Of a stretch of DNA of 64,000 nucleotides, positions 11,231 to 27,649 are shown piece by piece. The stretch spans positions 1-64,000 of the IMG/VR virus record IMGVR_UViG_3300022890_000014; one strand, written 5' to 3'. This DNA comes from a virus. How positions within the stretch are numbered: the stretch's first letter is position 1; the number at the start of each line of letters is the position of its first letter. Both the position numbers and the translations under genes were made by a program. The notes under the pieces are model-generated. The model was not told the origin of the DNA. It made no database searches and worked only from the letters and a program-made list of their open reading frames with translations.

Positions 11231-11653
11231 CTATTGGACCCCGTATCCTGCTACAGCAGGAGCAGCTAAGACGCCACCGACCATTGCAGCTATACCCTTG
11301 CCACTTTGCAGTTTTTGTATTGCACTAAATGGAACTTTCCCTGACTCAACTAGTGAAACAAGCTCCTTGGCAGGATTAGATGACTTTAATCCATACTCTT
11401 TAATAGCCCTGCCTAAAGCTGGCACAGATATAGCACCAGCCGCAGCACCTCCAGCCATTCCAGTAAGGCCACCAGCAACCAAGCCTTTCTTGAATCCTTT
11501 CCAGCCTTGCCCTTTGTCAGCAACTAAAGCACCAGTTGCCCCACCAATGCCACCACCGAGAAGACCGCCAGCAACCGCACTGCCAGCTATGGCACGACCA
11601 GCAAACCCAGTCTTTGTCATACCTTGATATATTCCTTCATATATTTCATCCAT
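11231..11653 (-). CDS. Glycine-zipper protein with GMTKx leader
   Basis: N-terminus MDEIYEGIYQGMTKTG; GxxxG repeats. Confidence 0.8.
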   Translation of the reverse strand: MDEIYEGIYQGMTKTGFAGRAIAGSAVAGGLLGGGIGGATGALVADKGQGWKGFKKGLVAGGLTGMAGGAAAGAISVPALGRAIKEYGLKSSNPAKELVSLVESGKVPFSAIQKLQSGKGIAAMVGGVLAAPAVAGYGVQ

Positions 11654-11695
11654 AGATAGATCTCCATAGTTGTATTAAAATAAAACATTGATATA

Positions 11696-11766
11696 ATTAT
11701 ACCACACGATAGTTGCTGCGTAAGGCTTACGCAGAGCAATACTAAGTGGGTATAAGACTGATAGAG
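11696..11766. promoter_or_regulatory. Divergent promoter pair with a palindrome between them
   Basis: TGTGGTATAAT (-, 11696-11706), palindrome 11717-11733, GGTATAAG-ACTGA-TAGAG (+, 11749-11766). Confidence 0.65.
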
Positions 11767-11801
11767 AAGATAAACTTATTTTTTATACAGGAGATAGTAA
11801 A

Positions 11802-11954
11802 ATGGGAAATCTAGTGATAATAGCAACCGCATTCATGCGTGGAAGTTTCAAGGAAGGTGTCGAAGTGACTATTACTGTAATGGAAAGAGGGAAGTGGGGT
11901 AAATACACAGAGAGGGTGAATAAGCTTGGAAGGAGGCTTAGCGCCTTACTATAG
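11802..11954 (+). CDS. Small hypothetical protein (50 aa), below the ORF-track cutoff
   Basis: AGGAG SD and its own + promoter motif; MGNLVIIATAFMRG... Confidence 0.45.
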   Translation: MGNLVIIATAFMRGSFKEGVEVTITVMERGKWGKYTERVNKLGRRLSALL

Positions 11955-12846
11955 CTTTGAAAATACCCTTGGCTATGTCTCCGAGACCTTTTGCCCGATG
12001 CAATCCTTTGCCTGCCATTTCTTGAGCAGCACTGGGCGACGAGGACATAAGACCCTCAAGTAGCGTAGCCGCTTCACGTTCACCTATTCCGTGGGTATTT
12101 TTTAGAACTTGCAGTGCTTTGTTCTTTATACCTTTTCCGAATGACTTAGACGTTCTGAACTCTTTATTATTAATTAAGTGTCCAGAGTCTATTGTTGGCA
12201 TAGCTATATGTCCAGATCCAGATATAGCCATAGGTTTTAATGACGCAGGGGCTTTTTCTGCCATCCTTGCTACAGTATTAGCTTTTCCATCTATAGCTCC
12301 AGCAAGTGCCTGCTGGTGTGCTAATAAAGCTCTTTCCTGATGAGGAATTATATCTTGAAGGGTATGTGATGTTTCACCTATATGACCAAGAGCTTGTGTG
12401 TATAGTCTCTGTTGTGCTTTTGGAGCTTTTTCTATAGCTGCTCTTGCCAAAAGGTCTGCTGCATTAGTCCTTCCAGCTTTCATGACATCTCTTATTCCTT
12501 CTTTGGTTCCAGGGAATGCATGTCTTTTCTGTGCAATAGGACTGAGCGGATTCCTTGAGACTCCATCTAGAACATTTGTACCTAAAGATGACACTCCTCC
12601 TAGTATATTAGAGCCAAGCCTGTTCATTTTTCCTGGCTTCGCTGCAAGGCTCTGTGATTTCTCGTACAGTACACCACTTCCTTTTCGTCCGTCTGCTATA
12701 TCAGCACCGTACTCAGTTAGTATATTTCTACCTCTATTTGAAACTCCTAGGCCATCTGAAACACTTTGCATTAATCCAGTGTGACCTTCTTTGCCATAAG
12801 CAGTCTTTGTCATGCCGTATAAAATCCCAGCGTATAAATCATTCAT
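11938..12846 (-). CDS. Hypothetical protein with GMTKTA leader
   Basis: MNDLYAGILYGMTKTAY. Internal LGHIGETSHTLQDIIPH is reminiscent of the Zn-binding helix of the phospholipase C/P1 nuclease fold (weak). Confidence 0.75.
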   Translation of the reverse strand: MNDLYAGILYGMTKTAYGKEGHTGLMQSVSDGLGVSNRGRNILTEYGADIADGRKGSGVLYEKSQSLAAKPGKMNRLGSNILGGVSSLGTNVLDGVSRNPLSPIAQKRHAFPGTKEGIRDVMKAGRTNAADLLARAAIEKAPKAQQRLYTQALGHIGETSHTLQDIIPHQERALLAHQQALAGAIDGKANTVARMAEKAPASLKPMAISGSGHIAMPTIDSGHLINNKEFRTSKSFGKGIKNKALQVLKNTHGIGEREAATLLEGLMSSSPSAAQEMAGKGLHRAKGLGDIAKGIFKAIVRR

Positions 12847-12850
12847 GTCA

Positions 12851-13336
12851 TTAAACACCAATCATTATATCTGCCATATCCTGAACAGAACCTTTGTTTT
12901 TAAATCGTGGGTCGGCATCCATTCTGTCTAGTCTTTCGGAGATATAGCTGTCAGGTCTAGAATTCATTTCTCCTAGCCTTCCAACTTCTCTGTCTGCCAT
13001 GTTACCACCCATATGTCTGCCGCCAAGTGCTCCACCGAGAGTGCCGAGAGCGCCTCCTATAGCCATCGGAAGTCCGTGTCCACCTTTCATCTTGAACAAG
13101 TTCTTAGCCAAGCCACCAACTCCAGCACCAAGAATACCACCACCAACCCCACCAAGACCAGTGCTAACAGCGCGTGTACGTCTCTTGAATTCCTCTGGAT
13201 CTATATCCCCATAGTAGTCTCGTAGCTCTCCGACTCTATCCTCAGTCGGACTATTGCTACCACCTGGAAGTACATGGAATGGGAAGTCAGAGGCAGATTT
13301 TGTCATTCCTATGTATATACCTTCGTATACACTCAT
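12851..13336 (-). CDS. Glycine-zipper protein with GMTKSA leader
   Basis: MSVYEGIYIGMTKSAS; GLGGVGGGILGAGVGG and IGGALGTLGGALGG. Confidence 0.8.
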   Translation of the reverse strand: MSVYEGIYIGMTKSASDFPFHVLPGGSNSPTEDRVGELRDYYGDIDPEEFKRRTRAVSTGLGGVGGGILGAGVGGLAKNLFKMKGGHGLPMAIGGALGTLGGALGGRHMGGNMADREVGRLGEMNSRPDSYISERLDRMDADPRFKNKGSVQDMADIMIGV

Positions 13337-13357
13337 AATACATCCTTTGCGTAAGGC

Positions 13358-14872
13358 TTACGCACTTGAAGATACAACGTTTCTCATGTCTCTATTGAGT
13401 CTATTCTTCTCTTCTGAAATACCATTTACCCATTCATCTATTCCTACTTCTTTCCCAGCTATAAATTCTAACAACCCATTTCTAGACTTAGGTTCTGAGT
13501 AATAATTTTTAACTATAAGCTTTCTATCTTCTTCTTTTCGGTTACTTTGACCACCGAGTCTTCTTCCTCTAGCAATAGCTTGATTATTCCTCTCTGGATT
13601 ATAGTGCCTATCCATAGTCATAAACATTGTGGTATCAGGAAGATTAACACCCTCTCCTCCTGCTGGAGTAAGAAGTATAACTTTATCTTTACCGCTATTG
13701 AATCTCTTTACAGCTTCATCTCTATTTTCTTTTGTAGCCCCAAGAGATCCATGACCAGCAAAGATTCCATGATTAATACCCCTATCTTTTAGTCCAGCAT
13801 CCAGAACGTCAGCACCACCTCTGACAAAATTGGTATGAATTGCAACCTGTCCGTCCGGTGTCTTGCCTAGATATTCTTCAAGATCATCTAGCATCTTAGA
13901 TACTTTAGGGGTTTCTTTGGCTCCCTCAGTAAGATCTACATCGCTGTAGAATGGTTCTATAGAATTTGATGCTTGACGAGCCTGTGTAATTATAGAGAAT
14001 ATATGTGAAGCTTCTTTTTGATTGACAGGAAGTCCGTTTCTTATCTTTCTTCTAGTTACTGGATCTAGTCTGCCAAGAGCAAAACTGTATGCTTTGCTTT
14101 GCTTTTTGCTCATTGGAACATACACATTCTCTTCTTCAAGTGCTGGCATTCCACCACCCATATCAGAATGAGTTACATAGTGTATCTTTCCTTTTATCTT
14201 ATCAGCCAAAACCGATTCATTTTTAAGCTTAACTTTTGATACATTTGGTTTCAAGAAACCACTGCTCCTAACTTCTCTTTTTGTGTGCTTCTTCCCGAAT
14301 GTACTTTGACTTCCGAAAGAATGCTCTGGAGAAACTATATCTAAAAGTGGAACTATATCTCTTGGGTGATTTGATATGAATGATCCAGTAACACCAATAA
14401 CATTGTCTACGTTTTCAGATGCATACCTCATAGACTTATTGGTTACAGACTGTGGATCTTTAGCTCTGTGTATTTCGTCTACAATAAGTGTATCAAACTC
14501 ATTGTCTGTCATAACAGATTCTGGATCTCTTCTAAACATTTCCATTGACATCAGACTGTAATCTTTATTCTCACCAACATCACCATAGGTACTATTGGTG
14601 AATTTCTTTATACCATTGTCTCTGAAATTAGTAAGAAGGGATGCAGGCATCAATACTAGTGCTTTCTTAGCTTTCTTCTGCTTTTTAAGCTCTTCAAATC
14701 CAGCTATAGAAGATAACGTCTTCCCTGTTCCTGTATCATGAGCTAGTAAGGCTCTTCCGTTATTCTCTAATATAAAGTCAAGAGCATCCTTCTGGTGTTC
14801 TTTTAACTCTATTGAAGACTTTAGTTTCGATGTCTTTGTCATTCCAGCGAGTATTCCTTGATAAATACTCAT
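13358..14872 (-). CDS. SNF2-like superfamily-2 helicase/ATPase with GMTKTS leader
   Basis: Q motif LKEHQ, Walker A HDTGTGKT, DEIH, VTGS, GGEGVNL, QAIARGRR. Stop codon supplied by the palindrome. Confidence 0.9.
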   Translation of the reverse strand: MSIYQGILAGMTKTSKLKSSIELKEHQKDALDFILENNGRALLAHDTGTGKTLSSIAGFEELKKQKKAKKALVLMPASLLTNFRDNGIKKFTNSTYGDVGENKDYSLMSMEMFRRDPESVMTDNEFDTLIVDEIHRAKDPQSVTNKSMRYASENVDNVIGVTGSFISNHPRDIVPLLDIVSPEHSFGSQSTFGKKHTKREVRSSGFLKPNVSKVKLKNESVLADKIKGKIHYVTHSDMGGGMPALEEENVYVPMSKKQSKAYSFALGRLDPVTRRKIRNGLPVNQKEASHIFSIITQARQASNSIEPFYSDVDLTEGAKETPKVSKMLDDLEEYLGKTPDGQVAIHTNFVRGGADVLDAGLKDRGINHGIFAGHGSLGATKENRDEAVKRFNSGKDKVILLTPAGGEGVNLPDTTMFMTMDRHYNPERNNQAIARGRRLGGQSNRKEEDRKLIVKNYYSEPKSRNGLLEFIAGKEVGIDEWVNGISEEKNRLNRDMRNVVSSSA

Positions 14873-14933
14873 GATATATCCTTTGCGTAAGGCTTACGCA
14901 TCCATCTGAATACGTAAGCCTTACGGTTACTAA

Positions 14934-16877
14934 CTAAGCATTCATGCCTTGTCTTGTTGCTTGTCTTTGCTCTGGAAGTGGAGACATATCAATTCCTTGC
15001 TGCTGAGGCATACCAACTTGCTGCTCTTGTGCGCTTATCGGCATTCCGTTCTGAGCTTGGGACTGCATTACTCCAGGATCAACACCCATAGCACCTGGGG
15101 TCATTCCTGGTTGCATTCCACCAGAGATTTCGTCCATTCTTAGTTCAATGAGTCTTACTAAGTTCGGACTTCTATCTCTAAGAATCTCAAGCATTTGCAT
15201 GCCAATTTCTTGACCCGATCTTCTAATGGTTCTGATGACGGAAGAAACCATATCATCGACGTTAGGATCTCTGTTCCCTTGTCGCCTCATGGCATACTCA
15301 AGGCTTGTCTTGGCCTTACTGTAAATAGCGTCCTTGGTAGAGTTCTCAATCTGAACTTGCATTGCATGCTGTGCGCTACCTTGATACTTAGCACCTAGCA
15401 CCATTTGACGGCCACTTATCTTAGCTTCGACTTCCATAGCCTTTTCTTTATACTTGGAACGAGCTTCTTCTTCAAGTGCTCTCTGCTTCATTTCAGTTTC
15501 CCAGTTCCATCCCCATTGATGTAAGAGGGCCTTAGCAGATAACATTCCCATTCCGTATAGCTGTATAGCTATTTGTTTCTGTTGTGGATCATCAGCCATC
15601 TTGAAGTCGGAGAACTTCACTTCTACAACTGGTATACCAAGATAAGGAGATAGTCTATCCATTACCCATCGAATCATATCTATTACTTGGTCTCTCCAGT
15701 TAAGGAAAGCATTCTCAAGCATTCTAAGACTAACGGAACTACCAGACCAGTTAAGGCCACCAAATACAAACTCAATCGGCGCACCCATTCCACCAGCGAT
15801 CTCTTTCTGTGCCTGATCGATCTCAGGAGTTAACAGAAGTGCTTTTGCATCTCCACCAACTCTCTGAACACCAAGAGGGCTGGACATAATAGCCTTGTGG
15901 TTTATGTCATTTCTATGTCTCTTTAGCTGCTCTGCTACATCACTTCTCCAACTCTTCAGCCCTATTTGCTTAATAGGATTGAATGTAGAAGTTGCCTGCG
16001 GATAGAATATGTCAAGAGGATTAGCTCTATCAACAGCTATAGCTTCTTGGGATTTGTTAAGAATTGTAGCGTAGTGTATCTTTTTATACACAGCCATTGG
16101 AACTGGCTTGCCCCAAGCCTCATCACCATCAGAAAGTCCCATAGTCTTCATGTGGTACATATTGTCATTGTCTATAACAACGAACCTATGCTTCTTCATG
16201 GCCTCTATGTATATGACTGGGATGCCTGCTATCTGATGCTTGTAGCCTTGGTTTATCTTACTTCTATACGAGTCAGGAACTCTATAGAAATATCTTGTCT
16301 TCTCTGGCATTTCTTTAGAGAATGATATAAATACATCCTCTACATCCCAAGAAAGAAGACTGACTCTCTCTCGATCATTAACTGCCATATCGACTGCTGT
16401 ATGTACGTGTCTTGTGTCACATTTATCACAGAAGCAGTAGAAGTTAGGATATTTGAAATCCCAATATGATGCCTGATCTTCCCATGTCTCATTGAAACAC
16501 GATGAGCATATAAACTTTCTTCGTGTTGGGAATCTTACAGACATAAGATGGTTTCCCATAGCGAAGTTGTTTAGTCCAGCATGTATACTGTACGACTTTA
16601 TTTTTAGGTTATCTTCCAGTATCCTTTTCCATGTCTTGCATAGCTTCTGGTTCTTGTCGCTAAACATGATGTCTGTAATAGCATACTGGGAGAACTTTCT
16701 TATAATAGCGGATACGATACTATGCCCGTAAAAAAACCTTTTAGCAGTAGAGAACAGTTCTCTTGCGCTTTGTGGGTGATATGTCGAGGCAATATCCAGA
16801 TAAGGATTTGAATATTTTATGTACGGATTATTTGAAGTACCCGTAAAAGAACCTGCTGTGGTTGTTATTGCAGACAT
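14934..16877 (-). CDS. Probable portal protein with Zn-ribbon insertion
   Basis: Portal-like segments (AWGKPV, IAGGMGAPIEFVFGGLNWSGSSVSLRMLEN, EVKFSDFKMADD); CxxC..CxxC insert; low-complexity Q/G/M tail. Confidence 0.65.
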   Translation of the reverse strand: MSAITTTAGSFTGTSNNPYIKYSNPYLDIASTYHPQSARELFSTAKRFFYGHSIVSAIIRKFSQYAITDIMFSDKNQKLCKTWKRILEDNLKIKSYSIHAGLNNFAMGNHLMSVRFPTRRKFICSSCFNETWEDQASYWDFKYPNFYCFCDKCDTRHVHTAVDMAVNDRERVSLLSWDVEDVFISFSKEMPEKTRYFYRVPDSYRSKINQGYKHQIAGIPVIYIEAMKKHRFVVIDNDNMYHMKTMGLSDGDEAWGKPVPMAVYKKIHYATILNKSQEAIAVDRANPLDIFYPQATSTFNPIKQIGLKSWRSDVAEQLKRHRNDINHKAIMSSPLGVQRVGGDAKALLLTPEIDQAQKEIAGGMGAPIEFVFGGLNWSGSSVSLRMLENAFLNWRDQVIDMIRWVMDRLSPYLGIPVVEVKFSDFKMADDPQQKQIAIQLYGMGMLSAKALLHQWGWNWETEMKQRALEEEARSKYKEKAMEVEAKISGRQMVLGAKYQGSAQHAMQVQIENSTKDAIYSKAKTSLEYAMRRQGNRDPNVDDMVSSVIRTIRRSGQEIGMQMLEILRDRSPNLVRLIELRMDEISGGMQPGMTPGAMGVDPGVMQSQAQNGMPISAQEQQVGMPQQQGIDMSPLPEQRQATRQGMNA

Positions 16878-16901
16878 GTATAAATCCTAAATGCGTAAGG
16901 C

Positions 16902-17600
16902 TTACGCAGTAAATAGTCCTATGTTTCTGACCTGCCTCAGTCCCTTTAGAACTCTGTTCTTACACCACAGCTTACCGGCTTCCATCTTCAAGACTTGGGT
17001 AGACACAGCATCAGTGCTAGGTAGATCTAATATTTCCTGCTTCTTCTCTTCGTTGTTCCAAGCTTCTAAAACTTTCCTGTTAAGTTCAACAGCGTTGGAG
17101 TCAGAGGGTGAAAGCTCAATCATTTTATCATTTATCATGTGACCATTCAAGTTGTCCCCTACAGGACAAGCAACGAAACCCTGATCTATAAGGCAACATG
17201 CTATGTAAGTAATCACTTGCTCACTTATCCCGACTCCGATGCTCTCTGCAATATTATAAATATCCTCGAAGACATTCAGGGTGTACCATATCTCACCTAG
17301 GCTAGGTTTCTGCAATACGCCAAAGTCGTGAGCTATTCCAGCAAACGCCTGAGTTGTATCACCGAATATGTCTGCCTCAACCCAGGGAACAAAATGAGTA
17401 TCTTCCTCTAGTGCCTGATTCATACAGGCGGCAGTAGCGAAGATAGCACTCCATCTGTTGTCTGGAAGTGGCTCACCTATTTCTTGTCGGAATGTTTCAG
17501 GCTCCCACTCATACCACTTGCCTTCAAGATACTTATTGAACAGAGCTTTTATATAGATAGGAGTTGGATCTGATATAGACATTATCTCTTGTACGCTCAT
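16902..17600 (-). CDS. Hypothetical protein (head module)
   Basis: 232 aa, coupled to the upstream gene; stop supplied by the palindrome. Confidence 0.75.
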   Translation of the reverse strand: MSVQEIMSISDPTPIYIKALFNKYLEGKWYEWEPETFRQEIGEPLPDNRWSAIFATAACMNQALEEDTHFVPWVEADIFGDTTQAFAGIAHDFGVLQKPSLGEIWYTLNVFEDIYNIAESIGVGISEQVITYIACCLIDQGFVACPVGDNLNGHMINDKMIELSPSDSNAVELNRKVLEAWNNEEKKQEILDLPSTDAVSTQVLKMEAGKLWCKNRVLKGLRQVRNIGLFTA

Positions 17601-18601
17601 GTTACATCTAATCCTGCGACTGGGGTTGTTTGGTTTGATTTCAGGAAGTCAATAGGTCTAAGGTATTTTCTAGCCTTACCTTTTCTGAAGTCTAGCTTAT
17701 CGTATACAAAACCAAGAATACCTGTGCATATTGAAGACTTAGGTTTTTTTACTATTTCTTCTCTAATTCCACCACCACCAAGAGCGGCAAGATATAAGTT
17801 TCTATCAGAATAAGGAATACCCACAAGAGTTTTTGCTGTATTAACAGCCTTCTCTCTTTCTTTCTGTTTCACATCTGGCCTAACAGCGAGCATATCTTTA
17901 TTTAGCTTTGCCATGCTGTTTACCGAATGTATCCTGACCTTCTTTTTGCTGCCAGGTACATACTGTCCAAATGACTTTATTCCCTCGTAGGAATGAAGCA
18001 TCTTTCCTTCGCCAACATAGATGCCAGCGTGGGTCCATTTTGAGCCAGTAGTTATCTTACTAAGTGTATTCCAGATCTTTTCGCCTACACCAGCCTTACT
18101 CTCATTAGCACTAGTGAGAATTATGTCACCTGGCTCTAAGTGTTCAAGAAACTTCTTTGTTTTCTTCTCTACAGTTAGATCCATATCTCTTAGTTCTGCA
18201 AGACTGGCAGTCTTTTGCGACTCTTTCCAGTGAGGCTCAAGCACTACGTTTGCCCAGTCACCTCTGAATGGAACAGCCCTATCATCTATATAGTGGTCTG
18301 CTATTACTTTTCCTGAAGAGTTAGGAGGCTGGTCTGGACTTTCGTTTATGTAATCATACGGAAGGTCGTGAGCCTCCATATATCTAGCCATACCTTCTTT
18401 ATCGCCTCTCACAGAGAAGACTATGATTCTATAGCCTTGTGCCCGTAGGCTATCTAAGCCTTCTTTTGCACCTTCAGTAAGAGGTCCGTATCCACCTTCA
18501 CCAGGATTTATCTGTATGGTATCATCAAAGTCAACAGCAACGGTCTTTTGCCGTGCCGCAGTCTTGGTCATGCCAAGGAAGATTCCATCATAGATGCTCA
18601 T
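17597..18601 (-). CDS. Two-domain protein: HAD-like phosphatase plus permuted papain-like (YiiX/YaeF-type) amidase, with GMTKTA leader
   Basis: VAVDFDDTI...IVFSVR...KVIADHYIDDRA (HAD); linker SQKTAS; PGDIIL..HAGIYVG..GIPY..ICTG (His before Cys). Confidence 0.8.
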   Translation of the reverse strand: MSIYDGIFLGMTKTAARQKTVAVDFDDTIQINPGEGGYGPLTEGAKEGLDSLRAQGYRIIVFSVRGDKEGMARYMEAHDLPYDYINESPDQPPNSSGKVIADHYIDDRAVPFRGDWANVVLEPHWKESQKTASLAELRDMDLTVEKKTKKFLEHLEPGDIILTSANESKAGVGEKIWNTLSKITTGSKWTHAGIYVGEGKMLHSYEGIKSFGQYVPGSKKKVRIHSVNSMAKLNKDMLAVRPDVKQKEREKAVNTAKTLVGIPYSDRNLYLAALGGGGIREEIVKKPKSSICTGILGFVYDKLDFRKGKARKYLRPIDFLKSNQTTPVAGLDVT

Positions 18602-18611
18602 GATATGCTTC

Positions 18612-19076
18612 CTAGTCTGATAAAAGTTTGTATAGTCCGACGCCAGTTAGCCCAGCCATTCCAGCTAGACCGATGTTTCTGGCTATGTTTTTGGATCTAG
18701 TCAATTTTGCCATGTCGTCTGTTAGATTCTCAGCTAAAAGCTTTGCTTCCATAGCTTCGTTTGCAGCAACACCAGGAGCGCCAGTTGCATATAATTGAAT
18801 CGGATTTCTTTTCTTCAACTGGTCACTAAATATACCCTTGGCTTTTTCTCCAAGATTCATAATCTTGTCATCGCTTCCTACTATTGCTCTATCTAGGGAT
18901 TTTCCTAATTGACCTTGCCTTCCTGCGTCATAAGACCAGCCACCAAGTCCAGCGCCAGCGGTTACAGCAGATGCTAATCCCAGTAGGTTCTCTGGTAAGT
19001 CTTCAGCAGGAGGAAGATTATTAACTATGTTAGCAGTCTTGGTCATGCCAAGGAAGATACCTGTATATATGTTCAT
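18612..19076 (-). CDS. Membrane-associated protein with GMTKTA leader
   Basis: MNIYTGIFLGMTKTAN; Gly-rich hydrophobic segments. Confidence 0.75.
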   Translation of the reverse strand: MNIYTGIFLGMTKTANIVNNLPPAEDLPENLLGLASAVTAGAGLGGWSYDAGRQGQLGKSLDRAIVGSDDKIMNLGEKAKGIFSDQLKKRNPIQLYATGAPGVAANEAMEAKLLAENLTDDMAKLTRSKNIARNIGLAGMAGLTGVGLYKLLSD

Positions 19077-19591
19077 TTTATTTTTTCCTTTAGATTTCTT
19101 AGTGCTTCGGACTCAAGCATACTAAGGTCAGAGAACTCACCACCAGACTTACCATATCGCTCTTGTCTTTTTATTGCTGTATCGATATTGATCCATTTTC
19201 CGTTCTTGAACTGATCTCCTTCGACACCAAAAAGGGAGTCATCTTTTTTATCGAATCTTCCTGCCCTAAAATACTGCTTATTGCCAGTAAAGTTTCTTCC
19301 CTTTTTCTTTGCTTTAGCTATCATTTCTTTAGACCACCTAATGTTTGAGGAGTCCACTCCGACTCCGTGGACATCTTTTAGTCTAAGTCCTGCCTCTTCT
19401 AATACTTCCATTCTAGCAGCTTGATTTATAGAGTTGTTGTTATCAACTCCACCGCCAGGGAATCTAAGTGTGTCTCTGTAGGGGCTTTCCTCTGCAAAGA
19501 CCTGTCCTTTATCATTGTACACAAAAACACCAACTCTTCTGCGAAGCTTGGCAGATTTTGTCATGCCAAGAAAGATGCCTTGATAAATCAT
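19073..19591 (-). CDS. Nudix hydrolase with GMTKSA leader
   Basis: Nudix-box variant FPGGGVDNNNSINQAARMEVLEEAGL. Confidence 0.85.
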   Translation of the reverse strand: MIYQGIFLGMTKSAKLRRRVGVFVYNDKGQVFAEESPYRDTLRFPGGGVDNNNSINQAARMEVLEEAGLRLKDVHGVGVDSSNIRWSKEMIAKAKKKGRNFTGNKQYFRAGRFDKKDDSLFGVEGDQFKNGKWINIDTAIKRQERYGKSGGEFSDLSMLESEALRNLKEKIK

Positions 19592-19613
19592 ATCTTTTCC
19601 TTATGCGTAAGGC

Positions 19614-20771
19614 TTACGCACTGGGAACTTCTTGGATTACTGGTGCTTCAGACATATCAATCCCACCACCGACAGATGGAATCATTGCAGCTATACCAGC
19701 TTGGTCTGGCTTAGGAAGTGAGGAAAGGATGGATACTGGATCAGATTGAATAGAATTCCAGAGTGTAGGGCCGTAGCTTGCAATGAACGTTTCTTTAGGG
19801 ATAGAACGGATCTGAGACTCAGTTACTTGAGTATCACCAAGAGTCATTGATTGTTCTGCTACCTTTGTGATATATCCACCATGAGTCGCTGCATATGGAT
19901 CGTCGATAGATTTGTCGTAGTATCTGTGGAGACCAGCAGCCTTATCAAGCTCAATCATTGCAGCGCAAGAGTTGTTAGCTCCAAGTTGATTAGCCTGCTT
20001 ATGAAGAGTCATAAATGGTGAACTGTCTATCTTGAACTCATCACAAAGGTTGAGTCTCTGAGCGATGTTCTCATCGAATCTTGAGCCGAAGCCGACACCA
20101 GCGTATTTAGCAATGGTGGGATTCATAAAGCTATCAAGTTGTCCGAACTCATCTGCTCTTGAGGCAACCTTGCATGAGAACTCAAAGCGTTCTTCTGGAG
20201 TGAATGAGTTTGCATTCTTATCTAAATACGCAGCGGCAACCTTGACTTGATCTATTTCGTGGAGAGGGTATCTATTGCGGATATTCGTGAGACCCCAGAA
20301 TCTTTTGTTACTATCAACGTTATTGTTAGTTGAAGCCACCTTTTGAATAGAAGGCATGCTGTACTCGAAGTCTTTAGCTCCTTCAACCCAAGTGTTACCC
20401 ATGCTCGGGAAGTCTTCTGCAATCTTGTGCATTGCTGGATTCACAGGGACATCCATTGCGGTTGCAGCCTTAGATATGTTTGCTCCAGCTATAGCCTGCA
20501 TTGCGTTGTTTAGTTCGCCAGCGGTTTTCATGAAGTACATGCCAGACATAAAGACCTGATTTCTATCAGACAAGGGGAAGTATTTCTTGACGCCACCAGT
20601 CTTTGTTATAAACACTAGTCCGAACTGGTCATCTCTCAGTACCTCTCTTTCCTCTGTGGAAAGAAGCTTTACAGAGGATGCTGTTTTCATAAGAGTATCT
20701 TTATCAATGTGCGCAGTAAGTTCTTTGAATATTGACAGGCCAGGGTCATCATATACATCGATTATAGACAT
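19614..20771 (-). CDS. KxA-rich head-module protein (scaffold/core-like?)
   Basis: About 12 of 24 lysines are in K-x-A; first gene of the operon containing the portal; stop supplied by the palindrome. Confidence 0.6.
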   Translation of the reverse strand: MSIIDVYDDPGLSIFKELTAHIDKDTLMKTASSVKLLSTEEREVLRDDQFGLVFITKTGGVKKYFPLSDRNQVFMSGMYFMKTAGELNNAMQAIAGANISKAATAMDVPVNPAMHKIAEDFPSMGNTWVEGAKDFEYSMPSIQKVASTNNNVDSNKRFWGLTNIRNRYPLHEIDQVKVAAAYLDKNANSFTPEERFEFSCKVASRADEFGQLDSFMNPTIAKYAGVGFGSRFDENIAQRLNLCDEFKIDSSPFMTLHKQANQLGANNSCAAMIELDKAAGLHRYYDKSIDDPYAATHGGYITKVAEQSMTLGDTQVTESQIRSIPKETFIASYGPTLWNSIQSDPVSILSSLPKPDQAGIAAMIPSVGGGIDMSEAPVIQEVPSA

Positions 20772-20807
20772 TTATTATATCTCCATTTTATTGTGGTTAA
20801 CTACACT

Positions 20808-20881
20808 ATAATACCACACAAGGATATTACTGTCACGTGTACGTGCATAACAACTAAGAATTAGGTATAAGATTAATAGAG
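20808..20881. promoter_or_regulatory. Divergent promoter pair
   Basis: TGTGGTATTAT (-, 20808-20818) and GGTATAAG-ATTAA-TAGAG (+, 20864-20881). Confidence 0.6.
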
Positions 20882-21018
20882 AAGGATTAGGCCCCTTCTT
20901 GCTCTTGTCGTTTGATAGGAGTTGGTCGCTTAAGCAACTCTGTGCGTAAAAAACACAGAGTGCTTCTTCGGCCTTGCTAGTCACAATTTTGTGGCAACAA
21001 ATGGTCGAGGAGACTATC

Positions 21019-21489
21019 ATGGATGCCAAGTCCACCGAAGAAGAAGTCCAGGCCCAGGGCCAAGAAGAAGTCCAGGCGATGTTAAAGGAAGCGATGGAGG
21101 AGGCGATAGAGGAGGCGAAAGCCTCTCTCGCAGCCTCCCCCGCAGCCTCCCCCGCAGCCGCAGCCGCAGATCAGACTCTCCAAGAATGGCTTGGAGAGAA
21201 GATAGGCCCAGAGATGGCACTTGCGTGCCACTCGCACGACGCGAAGTCCGCAGTTATAAATTGTGGGATCCTGGCAAGATTCCTCAAGGAGAACGAGGCA
21301 GACATCGTAAAAGAACACAGTGTGGAGTTGTTATTTGAATGTAAAGTAATCTGCGCGGGGTTGGCGGACTTCCACCTCTATCGCCTGCGCAGAAAAGCGT
21401 ACACCTATACCAACCGAGTCCTCTTCCAAGCCGAAGGCATTGGTGCATGGCTCAAGTTCAAATTCTACAGTTTCGTCTACGGCATCTAA
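21019..21489 (+). CDS. Hypothetical protein
   Basis: GAGGAG SD before ATG 21019; noticeably GC-richer than neighbours; AASP repeats. Confidence 0.7.
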   Translation: MDAKSTEEEVQAQGQEEVQAMLKEAMEEAIEEAKASLAASPAASPAAAAADQTLQEWLGEKIGPEMALACHSHDAKSAVINCGILARFLKENEADIVKEHSVELLFECKVICAGLADFHLYRLRRKAYTYTNRVLFQAEGIGAWLKFKFYSFVYGI

Positions 21490-21590
21490 GCCAGGCGAGA
21501 GTAGAACTTGAGACCGCTACAAAACAGCGGGATACAAATAGTTTTTTTAGCATGTATTTTTTTATTGCGTAAGCCTTACGCATGGTATAT

Positions 21591-21608
21591 GGTATAAGAG
21601 ATTTACTG
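21591..21608 (+). promoter_or_regulatory. Plus-strand promoter-like motif GGTATAAG-N5-TACTG
   Basis: 8 nt downstream of the palindrome at 21566-21582; upstream of ORF 21642. Confidence 0.5.
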
Positions 21609-21641
21609 TAAACAATTAACAAAAATAGACAAGGAGATGCT

Positions 21642-21920
21642 ATGTGCAGAATAGGAAAGATTGTAATAGAGTCGAGGAGTTCCGCTACCAATGACTGCTA
21701 CGGCTGCATAGCAGAGAACTGGGATTCCTGTAAGGAGTTTAGGAACGCCGTTGGTGGATGTGGCGAACCTGATGACAAAGCAGGTAGAATCTTTGTGTTT
21801 GTGAACTCAGGTCATAAAGCAGATCTAGTAGATGAGATCGAGAACTTGAAAGCTAAACTTAAAGATGCCGAAGTTCCCGCTAGCGCATCTAAAAGAAAAA
21901 TTGATAGGCTAAACAAATGA
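21642..21920 (+). CDS. Small Cys-rich hypothetical protein
   Basis: CYGC..C..C motif; AAGGAG SD. Confidence 0.7.
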   Translation: MCRIGKIVIESRSSATNDCYGCIAENWDSCKEFRNAVGGCGEPDDKAGRIFVFVNSGHKADLVDEIENLKAKLKDAEVPASASKRKIDRLNK

Positions 21921-22723
21921 AACGAATGACTCTCACGATAGACCCTCCAATCACTGAGCATTGTAGGGAGTGTAGCTACGAAGCATCAGTAAGCTTTACT
22001 GAACAAAGTGAATCATGTCCTGAATGCAGAAAGGCTACTGTGAATCCTGGCAGAAGAATAAAAGCTGAAGACAAACCAGTATCGGTGAATGCCATAACTA
22101 GCTCTACAAATGAAGGTATTCTAAGAACATACGTATTCAGCAATATTCCTGGGTGTGTCGATGTTGTATTTAGTTTGAAGTCTAACAATCTTATTCCTAC
22201 AGAAGATCCACTTAATGTGATAAACGAGATTATTTTCGCTCTGGATATAGTCTTTACGCACAAAGATCATAACAAGGCAGCTATGGTCCAAAGAGTCTTA
22301 TCATCCGATAGCGAAATTGCCAGACAGAAGAAGTTGAGATTCAAGCAAAGAAAACTCGATCTTGAGGAGGAAATCTACCGACTAAATGAAGAGTTCCAGT
22401 GTTACTGCAAGAGTGATACTGCACTAGAGAAGTTCAAGATCGAAGGAAGAACTCGGTTCGCTGCCATGCAAGATATACTTGTTATGTGTACTGATTCACC
22501 CAACGACATCATCTCAATTCTGAGAGAAGTTCCAGATCAAAGCCAAGCAAGAAGGCTGATGAACAGAGTGTTCTGGGAAGACTCTTTGAATATTGTGGCC
22601 GGAAATGTTGTTGGCTCCCTTGAAGGAATGGGCCTTACTATGGCATTTATAGATGTAATGAAGGAGAGATTTACTAATCAAGAAGATGTTATCGAAGAAA
22701 TCCGAAAGATGTACCAAGACTAA
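21917..22723 (+). CDS. Hypothetical protein with N-terminal Zn ribbon
   Basis: CREC...CPEC; ATGA overlap with the upstream gene. Confidence 0.75.
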   Translation: MKRMTLTIDPPITEHCRECSYEASVSFTEQSESCPECRKATVNPGRRIKAEDKPVSVNAITSSTNEGILRTYVFSNIPGCVDVVFSLKSNNLIPTEDPLNVINEIIFALDIVFTHKDHNKAAMVQRVLSSDSEIARQKKLRFKQRKLDLEEEIYRLNEEFQCYCKSDTALEKFKIEGRTRFAAMQDILVMCTDSPNDIISILREVPDQSQARRLMNRVFWEDSLNIVAGNVVGSLEGMGLTMAFIDVMKERFTNQEDVIEEIRKMYQD

Positions 22724-22754
22724 CTGCGTAAGCCTTACGCAAACGGAGATAGAT

Positions 22755-23450
22755 ATGCCATTTGATGTCTTTGAACACCACAAACTATTCTTGTTCGATG
22801 AGCTAAACGATACAGCTAAAGAGGCTGCCATCATGGAGTATCGGTACGACTTTCAGGATTTCGATTTCCTTATGTATAATGATTGGTTCTTCAACTTTTC
22901 TGAAGATGAATGGAAGTCTGTCATGTCGGAAATCAGAATGCCTGAAGACACTGTTCAGCCTGAACGAATACTCAAATGGGACAGAATCTCATCAGCATCC
23001 ATGATGGTTCCATCTATGGAACTTAAGGGAGTAAGTATTGATGGTGATGCCCTGGAAATGTTCTATAAGATCATAGGCATACATGGCACTGTTTTGGCCG
23101 ACGACAGTGTATCGGAAATTAAATTTGTATCAAATGTGTTTAGAAATTCGGCCACGAATATTGAATTTGAGCTAGATGATTATGACTTTACAGAAGATAA
23201 AGTTGAGCAAATCGAGAAACTTAAAAGATCTGCTAAGGTAAAGTTTGAAGAGCATTTCATGCTTAGGGCTGCAAGAGCTATGAGGGATAGCTATGATGAT
23301 ATGACTAGTGATGAGTATGTTGCTAACGAACTCATAGAAAGAGAGATTGTGTTCTATGTGGATGGATGCGTCGGAAACTTCAAATGGGACACAAAAGAGT
23401 TGATAGAAACAACCAAGATAACTAAGATAGAGGATCTAGAGGTAATGTAA
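22755..23450 (+). CDS. Acidic hypothetical protein
   Basis: GGAG SD before ATG 22755 (MPFDVF...); the ORF-track start runs through the palindrome and is unlikely. Confidence 0.7.
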   Translation: MPFDVFEHHKLFLFDELNDTAKEAAIMEYRYDFQDFDFLMYNDWFFNFSEDEWKSVMSEIRMPEDTVQPERILKWDRISSASMMVPSMELKGVSIDGDALEMFYKIIGIHGTVLADDSVSEIKFVSNVFRNSATNIEFELDDYDFTEDKVEQIEKLKRSAKVKFEEHFMLRAARAMRDSYDDMTSDEYVANELIEREIVFYVDGCVGNFKWDTKELIETTKITKIEDLEVM

Positions 23451-23794
23451 TGAACGAGAGGTTCGGTGAGATGCTTTGTAGGATTAGGCTACAGTTTGGA
23501 TTCTCTGCCATATTCATAGCTAGAACCATAGGGTTCACCAGAGGGTATATATGTGATGTTGAGAAAGGCAACAAGACACCTAGTCCTAACTGGCTAATCA
23601 AAGTCGCAGGTATCTTGAATCCGTCCACTAAAGATATAGAAAAACTTGGACACTTGCTCGTATCAGAAAGACAAAAGTTCCATTTCTTGTGTGCTGGTAA
23701 AACCCAAAGTGAGATTGAATTCATAAAGGATTTGCATGGACTTTGGTGCAAAGGAGAGATTAAGAAGTCTGATATAGAGGCTTTGTTGGAGTAG
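23450..23794 (+). CDS. XRE-family helix-turn-helix protein
   Basis: FGEMLCRIRLQFGFS...IARTIGFTRGYICDVEKGNKTPS. Confidence 0.8.
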   Translation: MNERFGEMLCRIRLQFGFSAIFIARTIGFTRGYICDVEKGNKTPSPNWLIKVAGILNPSTKDIEKLGHLLVSERQKFHFLCAGKTQSEIEFIKDLHGLWCKGEIKKSDIEALLE

Positions 23795-23799
23795 GTGTA

Positions 23800-24262
23800 T
23801 CACTCGGAATCTATTGTTCAGATGGGTTCTGAGTCACCTATTTCTTCTGGAGGATATTTTTTAGAAAATAGTCTGGTTCGCCACGAACAGCCAGGGTGGT
23901 TCATTTTGTGAGTTTGTTCTGAATAGCTAATATGTACTGACATGACTACAATAGAGCTATTTAGTTATTGATTCTTGAAGTCAATTACTTTATAGGTCGT
24001 GGCGTTTGGTCAGTCCAAGTTTTCTTTCTTATCATAGACACCATCTTGCTCTCTCCATACTTGCTGCATCCTGGTGGCTGAGTTTTACCACTTCTGAATA
24101 CATAGGGGTTGCCAAAAATAACCACAGCACTGTTCCGTTGGTGACTACTTACTCTCTTCCTTGTAGGACAGCACTATCGGATTGTAAACGATCCACGTAT
24201 AGATGGTTTCATTATCCGTACTGTCCGGTGAGTGGGAATCTTCAATGCAGTCATAGATCCCC
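23800..24262 (-). ncRNA. Candidate structured RNA (unassigned)
   Basis: Mostly ORF-free, with several long helices on the minus strand; boundaries approximate. Confidence 0.3.
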
Positions 24263-24794
24263 CTCTAAATGCTACTAGTGCGGTTAGATTGGAATTGCTA
24301 GTTCCTAGCTTATCTAGTGCAGCTTTTGCAGCGACTATAACCACAGTAGTCACGACAATGCCTACTCCTACGCCTATTAAGACGAAGGTGATACGCTGAC
24401 CTTTATACTTGCTAACTAAAGCTCTTTGTCTTTCCACTTCTCCAGCATGTAAGACTAAAGACTTGGCCTGCTTATCTATTACAATCTTGGCCTTTTTTGC
24501 TACGGTAGCACTAGCAACGGCAGCTTTCTTTGCAGCAACCGCTCTTGTCTTCCATAGTTCAATGAGCGTATCCTTTGTCTTGCTCTGCTGTTTAAGGCCA
24601 GGCACTATTCCTCGGAGTCCATTAAGTTCTGTTTTATCTAGAAGAATCTTTCTGCCAGTTTCAAGAGAGAAGCAGTACGAGTCTGCCTTCTTTCCTCTTC
24701 TTGCTTTGATACAGATTCCTTTTCTTGCTGAATGTGCATTTGTTGATATGGCAAAAGCCAAAATCATTGCGATTAGAAATATAAGTTTCTTCAT
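24174..24794 (-). CDS. Secreted/membrane protein, spanin-like
   Basis: Signal peptide MKKLIFLIAMILAFAIS, coiled segment, C-terminal TM helix. Confidence 0.55.
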   Translation of the reverse strand: MKKLIFLIAMILAFAISTNAHSARKGICIKARRGKKADSYCFSLETGRKILLDKTELNGLRGIVPGLKQQSKTKDTLIELWKTRAVAAKKAAVASATVAKKAKIVIDKQAKSLVLHAGEVERQRALVSKYKGQRITFVLIGVGVGIVVTTVVIVAAKAALDKLGTSNSNLTALVAFRGGSMTALKIPTHRTVRIMKPSIRGSFTIR

Positions 24795-24865
24795 ATCTAT
24801 GTCCTTGCGTAAGCCTTACGCATAGTGTATTCCGTTAATGTCGATTGTGTCAATTCTTCTCATTT

Positions 24866-25297
24866 TCAGTAACCTTCCTTTTTGAGTTGTTCAAGAACCT
24901 TATCTTCCGACATTTTCTTAACTTTATCAACAGCTTTCTTTGCTGTTCTTTCCATTGACATAATCTCTTTAGTGGCTACCTGAGAGTTTTTTGTCAACAG
25001 ATTTATCTGTCTTATAGTTTCTTGTTCTATATGTGCAAGTATTGCATTGGCTTCTTCTGCCTTCTTGACAGCCTTGTTGTACTCCACTTTTGACTTCTCT
25101 ATAGCTATACGAGACTTTGTAAGCAGTCTAGACTGATATGCATTGCATGACCACTGCCAGCCATTGCTACCAAGCGACATAGTGAGTAGTATGAACAAGA
25201 CGATTACTTTAGGGCTTGAGAAAAAGTATAGTAATGCAGGTGAAATATATGACCAGATGATTCCAATAATGCTCTTTGTATTTTCCATGTTATCCAT
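24866..25297 (-). CDS. i-spanin-like protein
   Basis: N-terminal TM helix followed by a long coiled coil. Confidence 0.55.
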   Translation of the reverse strand: MDNMENTKSIIGIIWSYISPALLYFFSSPKVIVLFILLTMSLGSNGWQWSCNAYQSRLLTKSRIAIEKSKVEYNKAVKKAEEANAILAHIEQETIRQINLLTKNSQVATKEIMSMERTAKKAVDKVKKMSEDKVLEQLKKEGY

Positions 25298-25360
25298 GAC
25301 TGACTCCTTTGTTGATTTCTTATATAGTACACCATAACAGCAGGAGTAGTCAAGGTGTTT

Positions 25361-26095
25361 CTAAAATAGGTCAGGTTTAGTTTTTTTCTTCCTAGGTCTT
25401 CTGTCAAGCCCACTTGGTATCTTTATTCCTTCTGGCTCTGGCGTGTCGTCGTCTATCTCTTCGGTGACAATTGGCTCACTAGTAGGTTTATAATTTTTAT
25501 CTCCAGATATTTTTCTCTCTCCAGCGGTAGTTAGTCTGTTTAGTATTCCAGAAAATGATCCTTTCTTGCTTCCAGCTTCTATGTCTTTACTAAAGAAAAA
25601 CAGGAGAGCGAATACTAGAAGTCCAACAACTTCCCACATTTGTAATGGGTAGAACTTGACATCCTGAATATGCATCCATGCTCTTGTCTTCTTAGATTCC
25701 GTAGTCTTCTTTGGGTAGTATTTTGCCCTTGTTTTTATCTTTACGTACCCGTTTCTTTTGGATACCTGCTCAGTGTTGATAGAGTTGGCTATACTTATCT
25801 CTGGGCCTAGCTTCAGTCCTTTGACCTCCATACCACCTAGAAACATACGTGCTATGACTGCGAGTGAGCCAAGCACGAACATTGTTCTCGATGAGGAGAA
25901 TCTTACTCTGACTACGACTCCATCTTGAATCTCAGAGTAAAAGAATAGACCTTTGAATATAGTCCTAGGAAGAAATAATAGCTCCATAAACATAGAGGCT
26001 AAGGATGCAATAAGTCCAAGTATACACTTCTTTACTTTCTTAGCATACTTGCTTGTCGTTTTCTGGATATAGGTATACCACTTGGTTTTGCTCAC
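25361..26095 (-). CDS. Multi-pass membrane protein (holin-like?)
   Basis: Three hydrophobic segments and a basic C-terminus; adjacent to spanin-like genes. Confidence 0.5.
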   Translation of the reverse strand: MSKTKWYTYIQKTTSKYAKKVKKCILGLIASLASMFMELLFLPRTIFKGLFFYSEIQDGVVVRVRFSSSRTMFVLGSLAVIARMFLGGMEVKGLKLGPEISIANSINTEQVSKRNGYVKIKTRAKYYPKKTTESKKTRAWMHIQDVKFYPLQMWEVVGLLVFALLFFFSKDIEAGSKKGSFSGILNRLTTAGERKISGDKNYKPTSEPIVTEEIDDDTPEPEGIKIPSGLDRRPRKKKTKPDLF

Positions 26096-26117
26096 AACAC
26101 TATTCCTTGCGTAAGGC

Positions 26118-26966
26118 TTACGCGATGGTTGTTAATTCTTTATTGGTTACTGCCGGTACAGCGAAGGTCTTTGACAGGCTGGATGCTGGTATCTCGATTC
26201 TGACACGTTGGGTTTGTGTTAGTTCTATTTGGAAGAATCCAGAGTTGTTCGATCTAGTAGATCTTCTTTTATTATCTATTACATCGTTATCTGAAGAAAC
26301 TATGTCTAGTGGATACGCATGCACTTCAGAGTTCTTTATAGGATCTCCTGATGCATTAACTGTATATCCCCACAAGACACATTTGTTTGGAGAAGACGGA
26401 GACCTAATAAGGTTCCTTTGGGCGACTATTGTATCTGTAGTAGTAGCTCCTGACACAACAAGTTCGTATGGTGTGCCAGAAAAATCATGAAGCTTCTTGA
26501 AAGGCACTAGCTGATACGTCCCAGGATTAAGCCCAAAGATAACAGATCCAGACTGGAGGGTTTTAACAACCCCGAATATAACAGTCTGTGTTTCATTCTG
26601 GATGCTTATCTCTACATTCTCAACTGGATCTGCATCTTGATCCTCTACGGATATTGTAACCATAGATGTTCCGAGAGGAATCAGCATATCATCTATATCC
26701 ACAGAGTTAACTATGAATACAGATTCAAAAGCAAGCTCCATAGTGGTTCTTCTGACACCAACGAACCACACGCCTACTGAATCTGGTGTATAAGAAGCTA
26801 CATAGTGACCCGAACCAATCTCTGACACTACAACGGCTACAGCACTAGCTACACCGTTTTTATATACATACTTAACAAAGTCAGTATTAGTTAGGCCCAC
26901 CACTGGTGCTAATGCTACGAACACGCTGAAGACATACTTTATTTCATTGCCTGCTTTTGTGTTCAT
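26118..26966 (-). CDS. Virion structural protein with prealbumin/carboxypeptidase-regulatory-like beta domains
   Basis: Paralog of 27662-28552 (shared LNPG.Y, SP..PN.C...G, G.F..EL); stop supplied by the palindrome. Confidence 0.65.
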   Translation of the reverse strand: MNTKAGNEIKYVFSVFVALAPVVGLTNTDFVKYVYKNGVASAVAVVVSEIGSGHYVASYTPDSVGVWFVGVRRTTMELAFESVFIVNSVDIDDMLIPLGTSMVTISVEDQDADPVENVEISIQNETQTVIFGVVKTLQSGSVIFGLNPGTYQLVPFKKLHDFSGTPYELVVSGATTTDTIVAQRNLIRSPSSPNKCVLWGYTVNASGDPIKNSEVHAYPLDIVSSDNDVIDNKRRSTRSNNSGFFQIELTQTQRVRIEIPASSLSKTFAVPAVTNKELTTIA

Positions 26967-27295
26967 ACCAGTTTCACCTTAGCCATCTCAGCTTCGTTTA
27001 TTTTCAATAGGGCTACTGCTTCATTTAAGCCTTCTTTAGCTCCCTCTTTAACATCAGGCCATACGCCTTTTGCTTCATGAGCTATACCCTTAAACCCTTC
27101 GGCTAATCCAGGTACGCTCATTCCAGCTAGCCCACCACCGATACCAAAAAGTATTCCTCTAAGAATATCAGAGTCGTCTTCGTCTCCAGTATATACACCA
27201 AGCGCCGCGCCACCAGCTACCCCAGGTATCATACCGTATAGCATTCTTTCGGTAAGACCTGTTATTGGTTTCATTGTTGGAGAACTCATATTCAA
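26963..27295 (-). CDS. Glycine-zipper membrane protein
   Basis: GVAGGAALG..DEDD..LRGILFGIGGGLAG, same architecture as 10380-10922. Confidence 0.65.
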   Translation of the reverse strand: MNMSSPTMKPITGLTERMLYGMIPGVAGGAALGVYTGDEDDSDILRGILFGIGGGLAGMSVPGLAEGFKGIAHEAKGVWPDVKEGAKEGLNEAVALLKINEAEMAKVKLV

Positions 27296-27322
27296 TCCTT
27301 ATGCGTAAGGCTTACGCAGGGC

Positions 27323-27649
27323 TTAGGAAAGTGCAACGCCACCACCAACACCAGTTCCGACAGCGCCAACACCGGCTGTGACGCCACCTGTAATCTTTAA
27401 CTTCTTTTTCATTTCTGGAGTCATCTTGCTAAACTCAGACTTAACACCCTTGCCTATCTGTTTTATCTTACCAATAGTTCTTCCGACCAAACCAGGAGCG
27501 TCCTTTCCCATATGCTCCACGGCAGCACCATATGCTCTACTTCCACCTTTCCCTCCTCTAACTAGCTTGCCGAGTGCAGTACCTATACCAGTGAACGCGT
27601 CAGCTTGCTTAGTCATGCCTAGAAAGATTCCTTGATACATCTCATCCAT
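27323..27649 (-). CDS. Small Gly-rich protein with GMTKQA leader
   Basis: MDEMYQGIFLGMTKQAD. Confidence 0.75.
   Translation of the reverse strand: MDEMYQGIFLGMTKQADAFTGIGTALGKLVRGGKGGSRAYGAAVEHMGKDAPGLVGRTIGKIKQIGKGVKSEFSKMTPEMKKKLKITGGVTAGVGAVGTGVGGGVALS

Follow-up and report, generated by a model that had tools for sequence, protein, structure and literature searches.

A likely capsid-targeting and maturation-cleavage leader shared by eleven unrelated proteins of an uncultured phage

Introduction

In phage T4, the capsid-targeting sequence (CTS) is the only conserved part of diverse internal proteins, sends them to the scaffolding core and is able to bring in foreign proteins as well (PMC3012670; PMC9024508). 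It is found on the internal proteins IPI-III and on Alt and is removed by the prohead protease gp21 (PMC3012670; Mullaney & Black 1996, as cited in PMC9024508). In phage P1, an N-terminal segment sends the large enzyme DarB into the capsid, from which it is delivered together with the DNA (PMC9024508), and in the phiKZ-like phage SPN3US, head and ejection proteins have propeptides that are cut by the prohead protease gp245 (PMC5694885, PMC10052503, PMC7411985). The element considered here is an N-terminal leader of about 14 residues, with the motif Y-x-G-I-x-x-G-M-T-K-x-A, which is found on unrelated proteins encoded in the IMG/VR record IMGVR_UViG_3300022890_000014. The window that was analysed comprises the first 64 kb (positions 1 to 64,000) of this single 150,744-bp viral contig, hereafter G000. 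Because its anatomy parallels that of the T4 signal, the leader is read as a targeting and cleavage propeptide, and we consider it probable, rather than assured, that it represents a T4-style capsid-targeting and maturation-cleavage propeptide in a non-T4 lineage.

The leader family in the G000 genome

A six-frame regular-expression search of the window returned exactly eight matches to the motif, all on the minus strand and each beginning one to four residues past the ATG of a real open reading frame (ORF; starts at 11653, 12846, 13336, 14872, 18601, 19076, 19591 and 27649), most of which are preceded by an AGGA-like ribosome-binding site. Three further copies lie outside the window (starts at 110350, 112079 and 126486), all in the head module and close to the capsid, protease and terminase genes, which brings the leader-bearing proteins of the whole contig to 11, with none elsewhere. 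When scored with a position-specific scoring matrix (PSSM) of the leader, the 11 copies reached 28-35 bits, while the next best match in the proteome reached 9.6 bits, and nothing approaching the leader scores was obtained from five shuffled proteomes. A degenerate copy, LYNTMTKTA, was observed at 119179.

Once the leaders were removed, all-against-all BLASTP in an 11-sequence database detected no mutual similarity among the 11 proteins, the best E value being 0.02. Three of the bearers are enzymes, namely an SNF2 helicase, a Nudix hydrolase and a C92/NlpC-P60 amidase with a HAD-like N-terminal domain, the latter called from a DxDxT-like motif, and six are small, non-enzymatic Gly-rich or glycine-zipper proteins. 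In the product of 11231..11653, Gly makes up 33% of the residues and 10 GxxxG motifs are found within the first 60 mature residues. At the invariant residues of the leader, synonymous codons are mixed (TAT/TAC, all four GGN, ATA/ATC/ATT, four ACN and AAA/AAG), and since third codon positions vary freely there, conservation lies in the peptide and not in the DNA. Direct reading of the 11 leaders revealed no Sec/Tat or lipoprotein signal features, given that a basic n-region is absent and the hydrophobic run does not exceed four residues. The radical-SAM family PF04055 was not found in the contig, which is about 82% complete, and was positive in 14 of 14 control genomes. The exact back-translated leader gave 10 chance matches in IMG/VR, none of them N-terminal, and blastn of the leader region against cultured phages gave no match.

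These results bear out the sequence-only reading of the window, in which eight proteins with unrelated downstream domains had been described as sharing a leader whose similarity ends after K-x-A; the count of eight holds for the window, whereas the genome-wide set amounts to 11 with the three copies of the head module. The same reading was right to reject a Sec/Tat signal, and purely nucleotide-level conservation, which it had named as a ground for refutation, is ruled out by the synonymous variation. Its SNF2, Nudix and amidase calls agree with Pfam, and the probable portal that it had pointed out is supported by Atlas features and by homology to the portal gp204 of Salmonella phage Arash. 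It had also proposed that the whole genome and related phages be searched for the leader, which yielded the three additional copies here and, in the relatives, leaders of their own.

Leaders in related genomes

An alignment-based scan with the portal gathered 80 related IMG/VR loci; a close-relative scan with the portal returned nothing. The best metagenomic relatives of the portal (P0002-P0007) have a portal identity of 49-52%. The exact G000 motif is absent from these 80 loci, though they have their own leaders: locus L021 contains FLNGFSDELEKV three times, and many loci show leaders of the form a-F-x-D-E-L-x-K-x-[AGS]. Across the 80 portal neighbourhoods, a generic leader pattern (44 matches in 31 loci) is six times commoner at N-termini than internally, with 2.26 versus 0.37 matches per 1000 residues, and in more than 20 loci it starts a gene of about 300 codons located just upstream of the portal.

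Two complete relatives, G004 (175 kb) and G005 (152 kb), were examined whole. Approximately 14 proteins of G004 begin M-F-x-x-G-F-x-K-x-A and about 8 proteins of G005 carry F-x-x-G-F-x-K-x-A; since only about 35 proteins are common with G000 by BLASTP, the sets of leader cargo are largely different. The orthologous SNF2 helicase bears the local leader variant in G000, G005 and locus L089. The core common to the three genomes is Φ-x-K-x-[A/G/S], and the relatives keep the peptide pattern despite quite different codons and GC content. In an alignment of 31 leaders on the lysine, F or I is found at -6, F or M at -2, K at 0 and A, more often than G or S, at +2, with nothing conserved past +2, and the lysine lies 5-16 residues from Met1.

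Read by eye, a leader-bearing protein of G005 has a Nudix box, and a leader-bearing protein of 385 residues in G004 (L102, 20397-21554) has a KxDG motif typical of ATP-dependent ligases; for comparison with the latter, two RNA ligases are reported from Arash particles.

The leader core in head proteins and the prohead protease

The core Φ-x-K-x-[AGS] recurs in head proteins. In G000, G004, G005, Arash and Vibrio phage D69, the capsid protein has a conserved G-x-x-K-x-A-A about 30 residues from its N-terminus (GGLHKAAAA, DGQTKTAQA, EGLQKTAAA, QGLVKEAGAA and QGLTKEAGAA being examples). In the protease family, a conserved site with the consensus Y-L-x-K-T-A-S closes the disordered first 32 or so residues, an invariant PADKTA is located where the catalytic domain ends, and the C-terminal extension holds leader-like copies, SLKGFEKVAA and DFLKGFNKS in the relatives and NSMSKTAA and ELMKTAG in G000. 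The small proteins encoded between the protease and capsid genes are also enriched in the core, whose background frequency is 0.58 per 100 residues. As judged from these motifs, the leader ends in a motif that the prohead protease probably cuts.

The protease gene is placed in the head module, upstream of scaffold-like genes and of the capsid gene, and the G000, G004 and G005 orthologues all match phrog_18299 (E = 7e-5 to 2e-6). In G000, the protein is split by an intein (Hint plus LAGLIDADG, approximately residues 175-554) located directly behind the conserved protease core; the orthologue in G005 likewise contains one, and that in G004 (613 residues) is free of inteins. The AlphaFold2 model of the G004 protease is well folded over residues ~40-220 and matches many 'prohead protease' models in BFVD (E = 1e-5 to 1e-24), and its top PDB rows are herpesvirus assemblins, weakly matched at E = 0.05-1 with a prob of 0.87 at E = 0.05. 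Pfam S78 has no match in the genome, and the portal and protease profiles gave no meaningful match against PDB sequences. By sequence and fold match together with location in the head module, the product is identified as an assemblin/HK97-type prohead protease. Intein Pfam domains are also carried by some database homologues of the protease (P0166, P0189).

The multi-site protein next to the portal block

The protein densest in Φ-x-K-x-[AGS] in all three genomes is a 385-residue protein whose gene adjoins the portal block, with 11 sites in G000, 16 in G004 and 14 in G005 against about 2 expected (2.2 in G000), corresponding to P = 2e-5, 2e-9 and 5e-8, respectively. Composition-preserving shuffles of the orthologues never attain the observed counts, and the sites fall at aligned columns. 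Homologues are present in 61 of the 80 related loci, and the clade-wide N-terminal motif of the protein is LDFYDD...ELMxKVA. Its AlphaFold2 model is helical, with a predicted local distance difference test score (pLDDT) of 79, and a fold search returned only generic helical matches (Z < 6) and no known fold. Seven of the 11 sites in G000 are at most four residues from a predicted helix C-terminus (P = 0.007) and three are in coil. This protein is a candidate core or scaffold substrate, or a candidate docking partner of the leader. Arash gp220 was considered as its orthologue and rejected, as no homology is detectable.

Cultured relatives

The wider clade has cultured members, namely Salmonella phage Arash and Vibrio phages D69, D181 and D148. 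They share the synteny of portal, RNA polymerase (RNAP), helicase, protease and capsid genes, the gene order in Arash being the same, and their capsid, protease and head-module proteins follow the same K-x-A grammar. The extended multi-protein N-terminal leader was not seen in the examined parts of these phages. A previous study found RNAP beta (with the most spectra of any protein), beta', the sigma factor gp10, a cell-wall hydrolase and the helicase gp217 in the Arash virion proteome, the helicase being represented by 38 unique peptides and 1148 spectra (PMC10585845). The G000 helicase aligns with the full length of gp217 (E = 1e-44) from G000 residue 22 onwards, which indicates that the leader has been added to an enzyme that is complete in itself. 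The RNAP beta of Arash and D69 begins with a minimal MPK[KS]AS.

Genes of the portal block and of the rest of the window

The features are collected in Table 1. More than 369 homologues of the portal were found in metagenomes. A second structural block, with the major capsid protein and the large terminase, includes the other three leader genes. Most leader proteins and small head-module proteins have no match in Pfam or PHROGs.

Table 1. Coordinates of leader genes, portal-block genes and other features of the G000 contig.
Feature	Position	Strand	Basis or remark
Single-chain beta-beta' RNAP, 2520 aa	2278..9840	minus	PHROG RNAP beta matches
Leader protein, 140 aa	11231..11653	minus	Leader MDEIYEGIYQGMTKTG, then a glycine-zipper membrane-like body; no Pfam match
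Leader protein, 302 aa, no assigned function	11938..12846	minus	Leader motif search
Leader protein, 161 aa, Gly-rich	12851..13336	minus	17-bp palindrome immediately upstream
Leader and SNF2-family helicase, 504 aa	13358..14872	minus	Pfam SNF2-rel_dom, E = 1.6e-22
Portal protein, 647 aa, leader genes on both flanks	14934..16877	minus	Atlas portal clusters 0.97-0.98; Arash portal gp204, E = 3e-72
Conserved portal-block protein without leader, 232 aa	16902..17600	minus	Homologues in 32 of 80 related loci; no family match
Leader, HAD-like N-terminal domain and C92/NlpC-P60 amidase, 334 aa	17597..18601	minus	Pfam Peptidase_C92, E = 1.7e-5; NLPC_P60, E = 1.5e-4
Leader protein, 154 aa, Gly/Ala-rich hydrophobic segment	18612..19076	minus	Leader motif search
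Leader and Nudix hydrolase, 172 aa	19073..19591	minus	Pfam NUDIX, E = 5.5e-11
Conserved helical multi-site protein, 385 aa	19614..20771	minus	11 Φ-x-K-x-[AGS] sites
Leader protein, 108 aa, Gly/Lys-rich	27323..27649	minus	Leader motif search
Sigma-like factor	51815..52855	minus	N-terminal extension of ~95 aa holds its Φ-x-K-x-[AGS] sites
Major capsid protein	114612-115550 (genome)		phrog_2522
Prohead protease, 1154 aa	120156-123620 (genome; L092:1756-5220), outside the window	minus	phrog_18299 'head maturation protease' at residues 61-171
Large terminase	128706-130616 (genome)

The RNAP has a 47-residue N-terminal extension, MSIY...YLEKQAKK, that is absent from G004 and G005. This extension looks like a degenerate leader; it starts with MSIY like the leaders and contains YLEKQA. 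The sigma-like factor has six Φ-x-K-x-[AGS] sites against 2.0 expected (shuffle p = 0.01), and its N-terminal extension is likewise absent from G004 and G005.

The 17-bp palindrome tGCGTAAGCCTTACGCa is found just upstream of three leader genes (13337-13360, 14873-14895 and 19592-19615) and in many other places. It is a genome-wide repeat lying outside the leader, and its in-frame reading gives a recurrent RKPYA peptide at some predicted N-termini. Beside a leader gene, a 108-residue protein (26963-27289, minus strand) begins MSSPTMKPITGLTERMLYGMIPG, which resembles the leader middle ILYGM; as it lacks the T-K-x-A end but keeps a leader-like middle, it may have a decayed leader. A 440-residue protein (29086-30408, minus strand) was considered as a capsid protein and rejected, since its Atlas model is like five-bladed beta-propeller glycosidases (GH32/GH130-like). 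This protein of the structural region may act in receptor binding or as a depolymerase.

A proposed targeting and cleavage propeptide and its alternatives

For the leader, we infer docking, cleavage at a particular bond and ejection, in the following course. The leader would be a short helix of 10-16 residues by which its bearer docks to the core of the assembling prohead, and its end, Φ-x-K-x-[A/G/S], would be the site that the assemblin/HK97-type prohead protease of the phage recognises. Once the shell is built, this enzyme would remove the leader as well as about 30 residues of the capsid protein, and would cut the scaffold-like proteins, so that the mature SNF2 helicase, Nudix hydrolase and peptidoglycan amidase, together with the small glycine-zipper proteins, would be left in the head. 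The RNAP and the sigma factor would probably be loaded too, by means of degenerate leader versions, and the packaged mature proteins would be ejected with the DNA. A cut directly after the K of Φ-x-K is favoured because K is the most invariant position, comparable to the T4 cut after the E of Φ-x-E; by analogy with herpesviruses, the alternative bond would follow the small residue at +2. The sequence-only reading had proposed such a targeting-and-cleavage peptide, and this part of it is the best supported, given the core in capsid, protease and scaffold-like proteins, the prohead protease encoded by the phage, the co-varying leaders of the relatives and the virion location of the helicase orthologue in Arash, whereas its packaging, cleavage and injection stand at the level of inference.

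Several observations weigh against this explanation. The multi-site protein is confidently folded and not disordered, which is unusual for a protein to be shredded. The core is common, so that single sites mean little, and the best internal matches to the full leader PSSM in G000 are individually no better than chance, about two being expected. In G005, full-strength leader copies are located 35-155 residues inside predicted proteins (L093-L100; genes 12106-12714, 116083-116508, 11757-12134, 111374-111721 and 119029-119535), and one is at a C-terminus; these reflect either mis-called start codons or several copies per protein, and internal and C-terminal copies fit a docking motif as well as a cleavage site. 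The genome is from an uncultured phage, and its contig reaches a completeness of about 82%. The 91 kb of Arash that were examined showed no leader family, and since the Arash helicase is without a leader and yet in virions, the leader is not universally required. The abundant enzymes of Arash particles may in addition be carry-over from the preparation, as its authors stated (PMC10585845).

Among the alternatives, the leader could serve for docking alone, as a short helix that binds a head component (the multi-site protein, scaffold, portal or capsid interior) and is kept on the mature protein, with K-x-A as a helix-end or binding feature. The seven of 11 sites near predicted helix C-ends in the confidently folded multi-site protein, the internal and C-terminal full copies of G005, and the description of the P1 DarB packaging signal as a targeting signal would all be accommodated. 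This explanation is nevertheless rather unlikely, since the phage encodes a prohead protease, the similarity among leaders stops abruptly at +2, and the core is found at classic processing positions, namely the conserved capsid site about 30 residues in and the end of the disordered N-terminal segment of the protease. Conversely, the leader could be a pro-peptide removed by the protease and without address function, which would keep the amidase, Nudix hydrolase and helicase inactive or time their processing, packaging being set elsewhere or absent. The match of the core to the putative protease site and the entry of the Arash helicase into the virion without a leader agree with it, but conservation reaches 7-10 residues upstream of the core (Y-x-G-I-x-x-G), beyond what a cleavage site needs, and small Gly-rich proteins without enzymatic function make up six of the 11 bearers. 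Moreover, prohead proteases of the T4 and HK97 types act inside proheads, so that their substrates must arrive there first, and we regard this alternative as unlikely.

Still less probable is another localisation or turnover tag, such as an amphipathic helix for membrane targeting, an N-terminal degron read by a host AAA+ protease, or a leader recognised by a modifying enzyme, as in ribosomally synthesised and post-translationally modified peptides. Several bearers do have glycine-zipper, membrane-like bodies; however, a cytoplasmic helicase and a Nudix hydrolase share the same leader, no radical-SAM gene was found in the contig, and the lack of a basic n-region or long hydrophobic core speaks against Sec/Tat. 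Such a tag would also leave unexplained the motif shared with capsid and protease and the placement of genes in the head module. A nucleotide-level regulatory element, acting in transcription or translation and itself translated by coincidence, could invoke the palindrome upstream of three leader genes, but this lies outside the leader and is repeated genome-wide, and the relatives conserve the peptide pattern with different codons and GC content. As third codon positions are free at the invariant residues, this explanation is effectively refuted and its probability is negligible.

The propeptide explanation can be extended to an as yet undescribed, co-evolving address system, a bolder idea that we consider doubtful. 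Each phage of the clade would write its own helix-end code (Φ-x-K-x-A) on its cargo and 11-16 times on the novel-fold multi-site protein of the core, cargo would load by mimicking this repeat, and a Lys-directed assemblin-type protease would then free dozens of enzymes for injection, including a transcription kit of single-chain RNAP, sigma factor and SNF2 helicase. If true, such a system would represent a portable and re-programmable protein-delivery code.

Implications

If the targeting and cleavage function is confirmed, capsid-targeting leaders would not be a T4 peculiarity but a recurrent solution, in which sequence and protease specificity differ between unrelated large phages. From sequence alone, the leader would mark out which proteins of this uncultured clade, with its hundreds of members, are probably injected. 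Among them would be many small membrane-active proteins, a helicase, a cell-wall amidase, a Nudix hydrolase and, in a relative, a ligase-like enzyme. For most of these proteins no function is assigned, and early takeover of the host or counter-defence are candidate roles. The genome-specific leader variants constitute a natural series from which the requirements of a working tag could be learned, and such short tags are of use for loading foreign proteins into phage heads.

Comparison with known systems

The closest parallel is the T4 CTS. In both cases an N-terminal peptide, here of about 10-16 residues, is all that is conserved among otherwise unrelated proteins whose genes lie near those of the head; it ends in a motif of the type Φ-x-charged that capsid and scaffold proteins also contain, and its bearers include enzymes suited to the first minutes of infection. 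One trait of the T4-type class, a short N-terminal peptide on unrelated proteins of one phage, was found here on 11 proteins. Descent from the T4 signal with its gp21-type processing is not indicated, as no MKTYQEFIAE-like sequence was found and an invariant Lys stands where T4 has Glu. There is no sequence relation between the two, the core being Φ-x-K-x-[A/G/S] here and L/I-x-E in T4. The lineage of the leader further differs from T4 in having a virion RNAP of the multisubunit type and a divergent protease of the assemblin/HK97 type, which is prolonged at its C-terminus by a long helical region and, in G000 and G005, interrupted by an intein; packaging and cleavage are putative here.

In P1, the signal is present on one protein and depends on stepwise Dar assembly, whereas here 11 proteins carry the leader together with a putative protease motif. 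PhiKZ-like propeptides are long, differ from one another and have in common only a short cleavage motif with Glu at its end, while the present leader is conserved and modular. The likeness to these phages, such as SPN3US, is that many head-internal or ejected proteins are processed by a prohead protease in phages that also package an RNAP, the processing being a proposal in the present case.

The likeness to herpesvirus pUL26, with its R- and M-sites, lies in the assemblin fold, in the fusion of the protease to a helical scaffold-like extension and in conserved sites at domain boundaries (PADKTA), the similarity to PDB structures being weak (E = 0.05-1). Herpesvirus sites are cut after Ala, between the Ala and Ser of Φ-x-A-S. 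The cargo-loading peptide of encapsulins is also short and terminal, although usually C-terminal; it is uncleaved, binds the interior of an HK97-fold shell and has a motif that differs from the leader. The sequence-only reading had suggested that the leader could be an undescribed delivery code, which does not hold, because the kind is already known and parallels the T4 CTS and the P1 DarB signal. New here are the phage lineage, a motif based on lysine, a protease of the assemblin type that is split by an intein and bears a scaffold-like extension, the multi-site 385-residue protein and the clade-wide series of genome-specific leaders.

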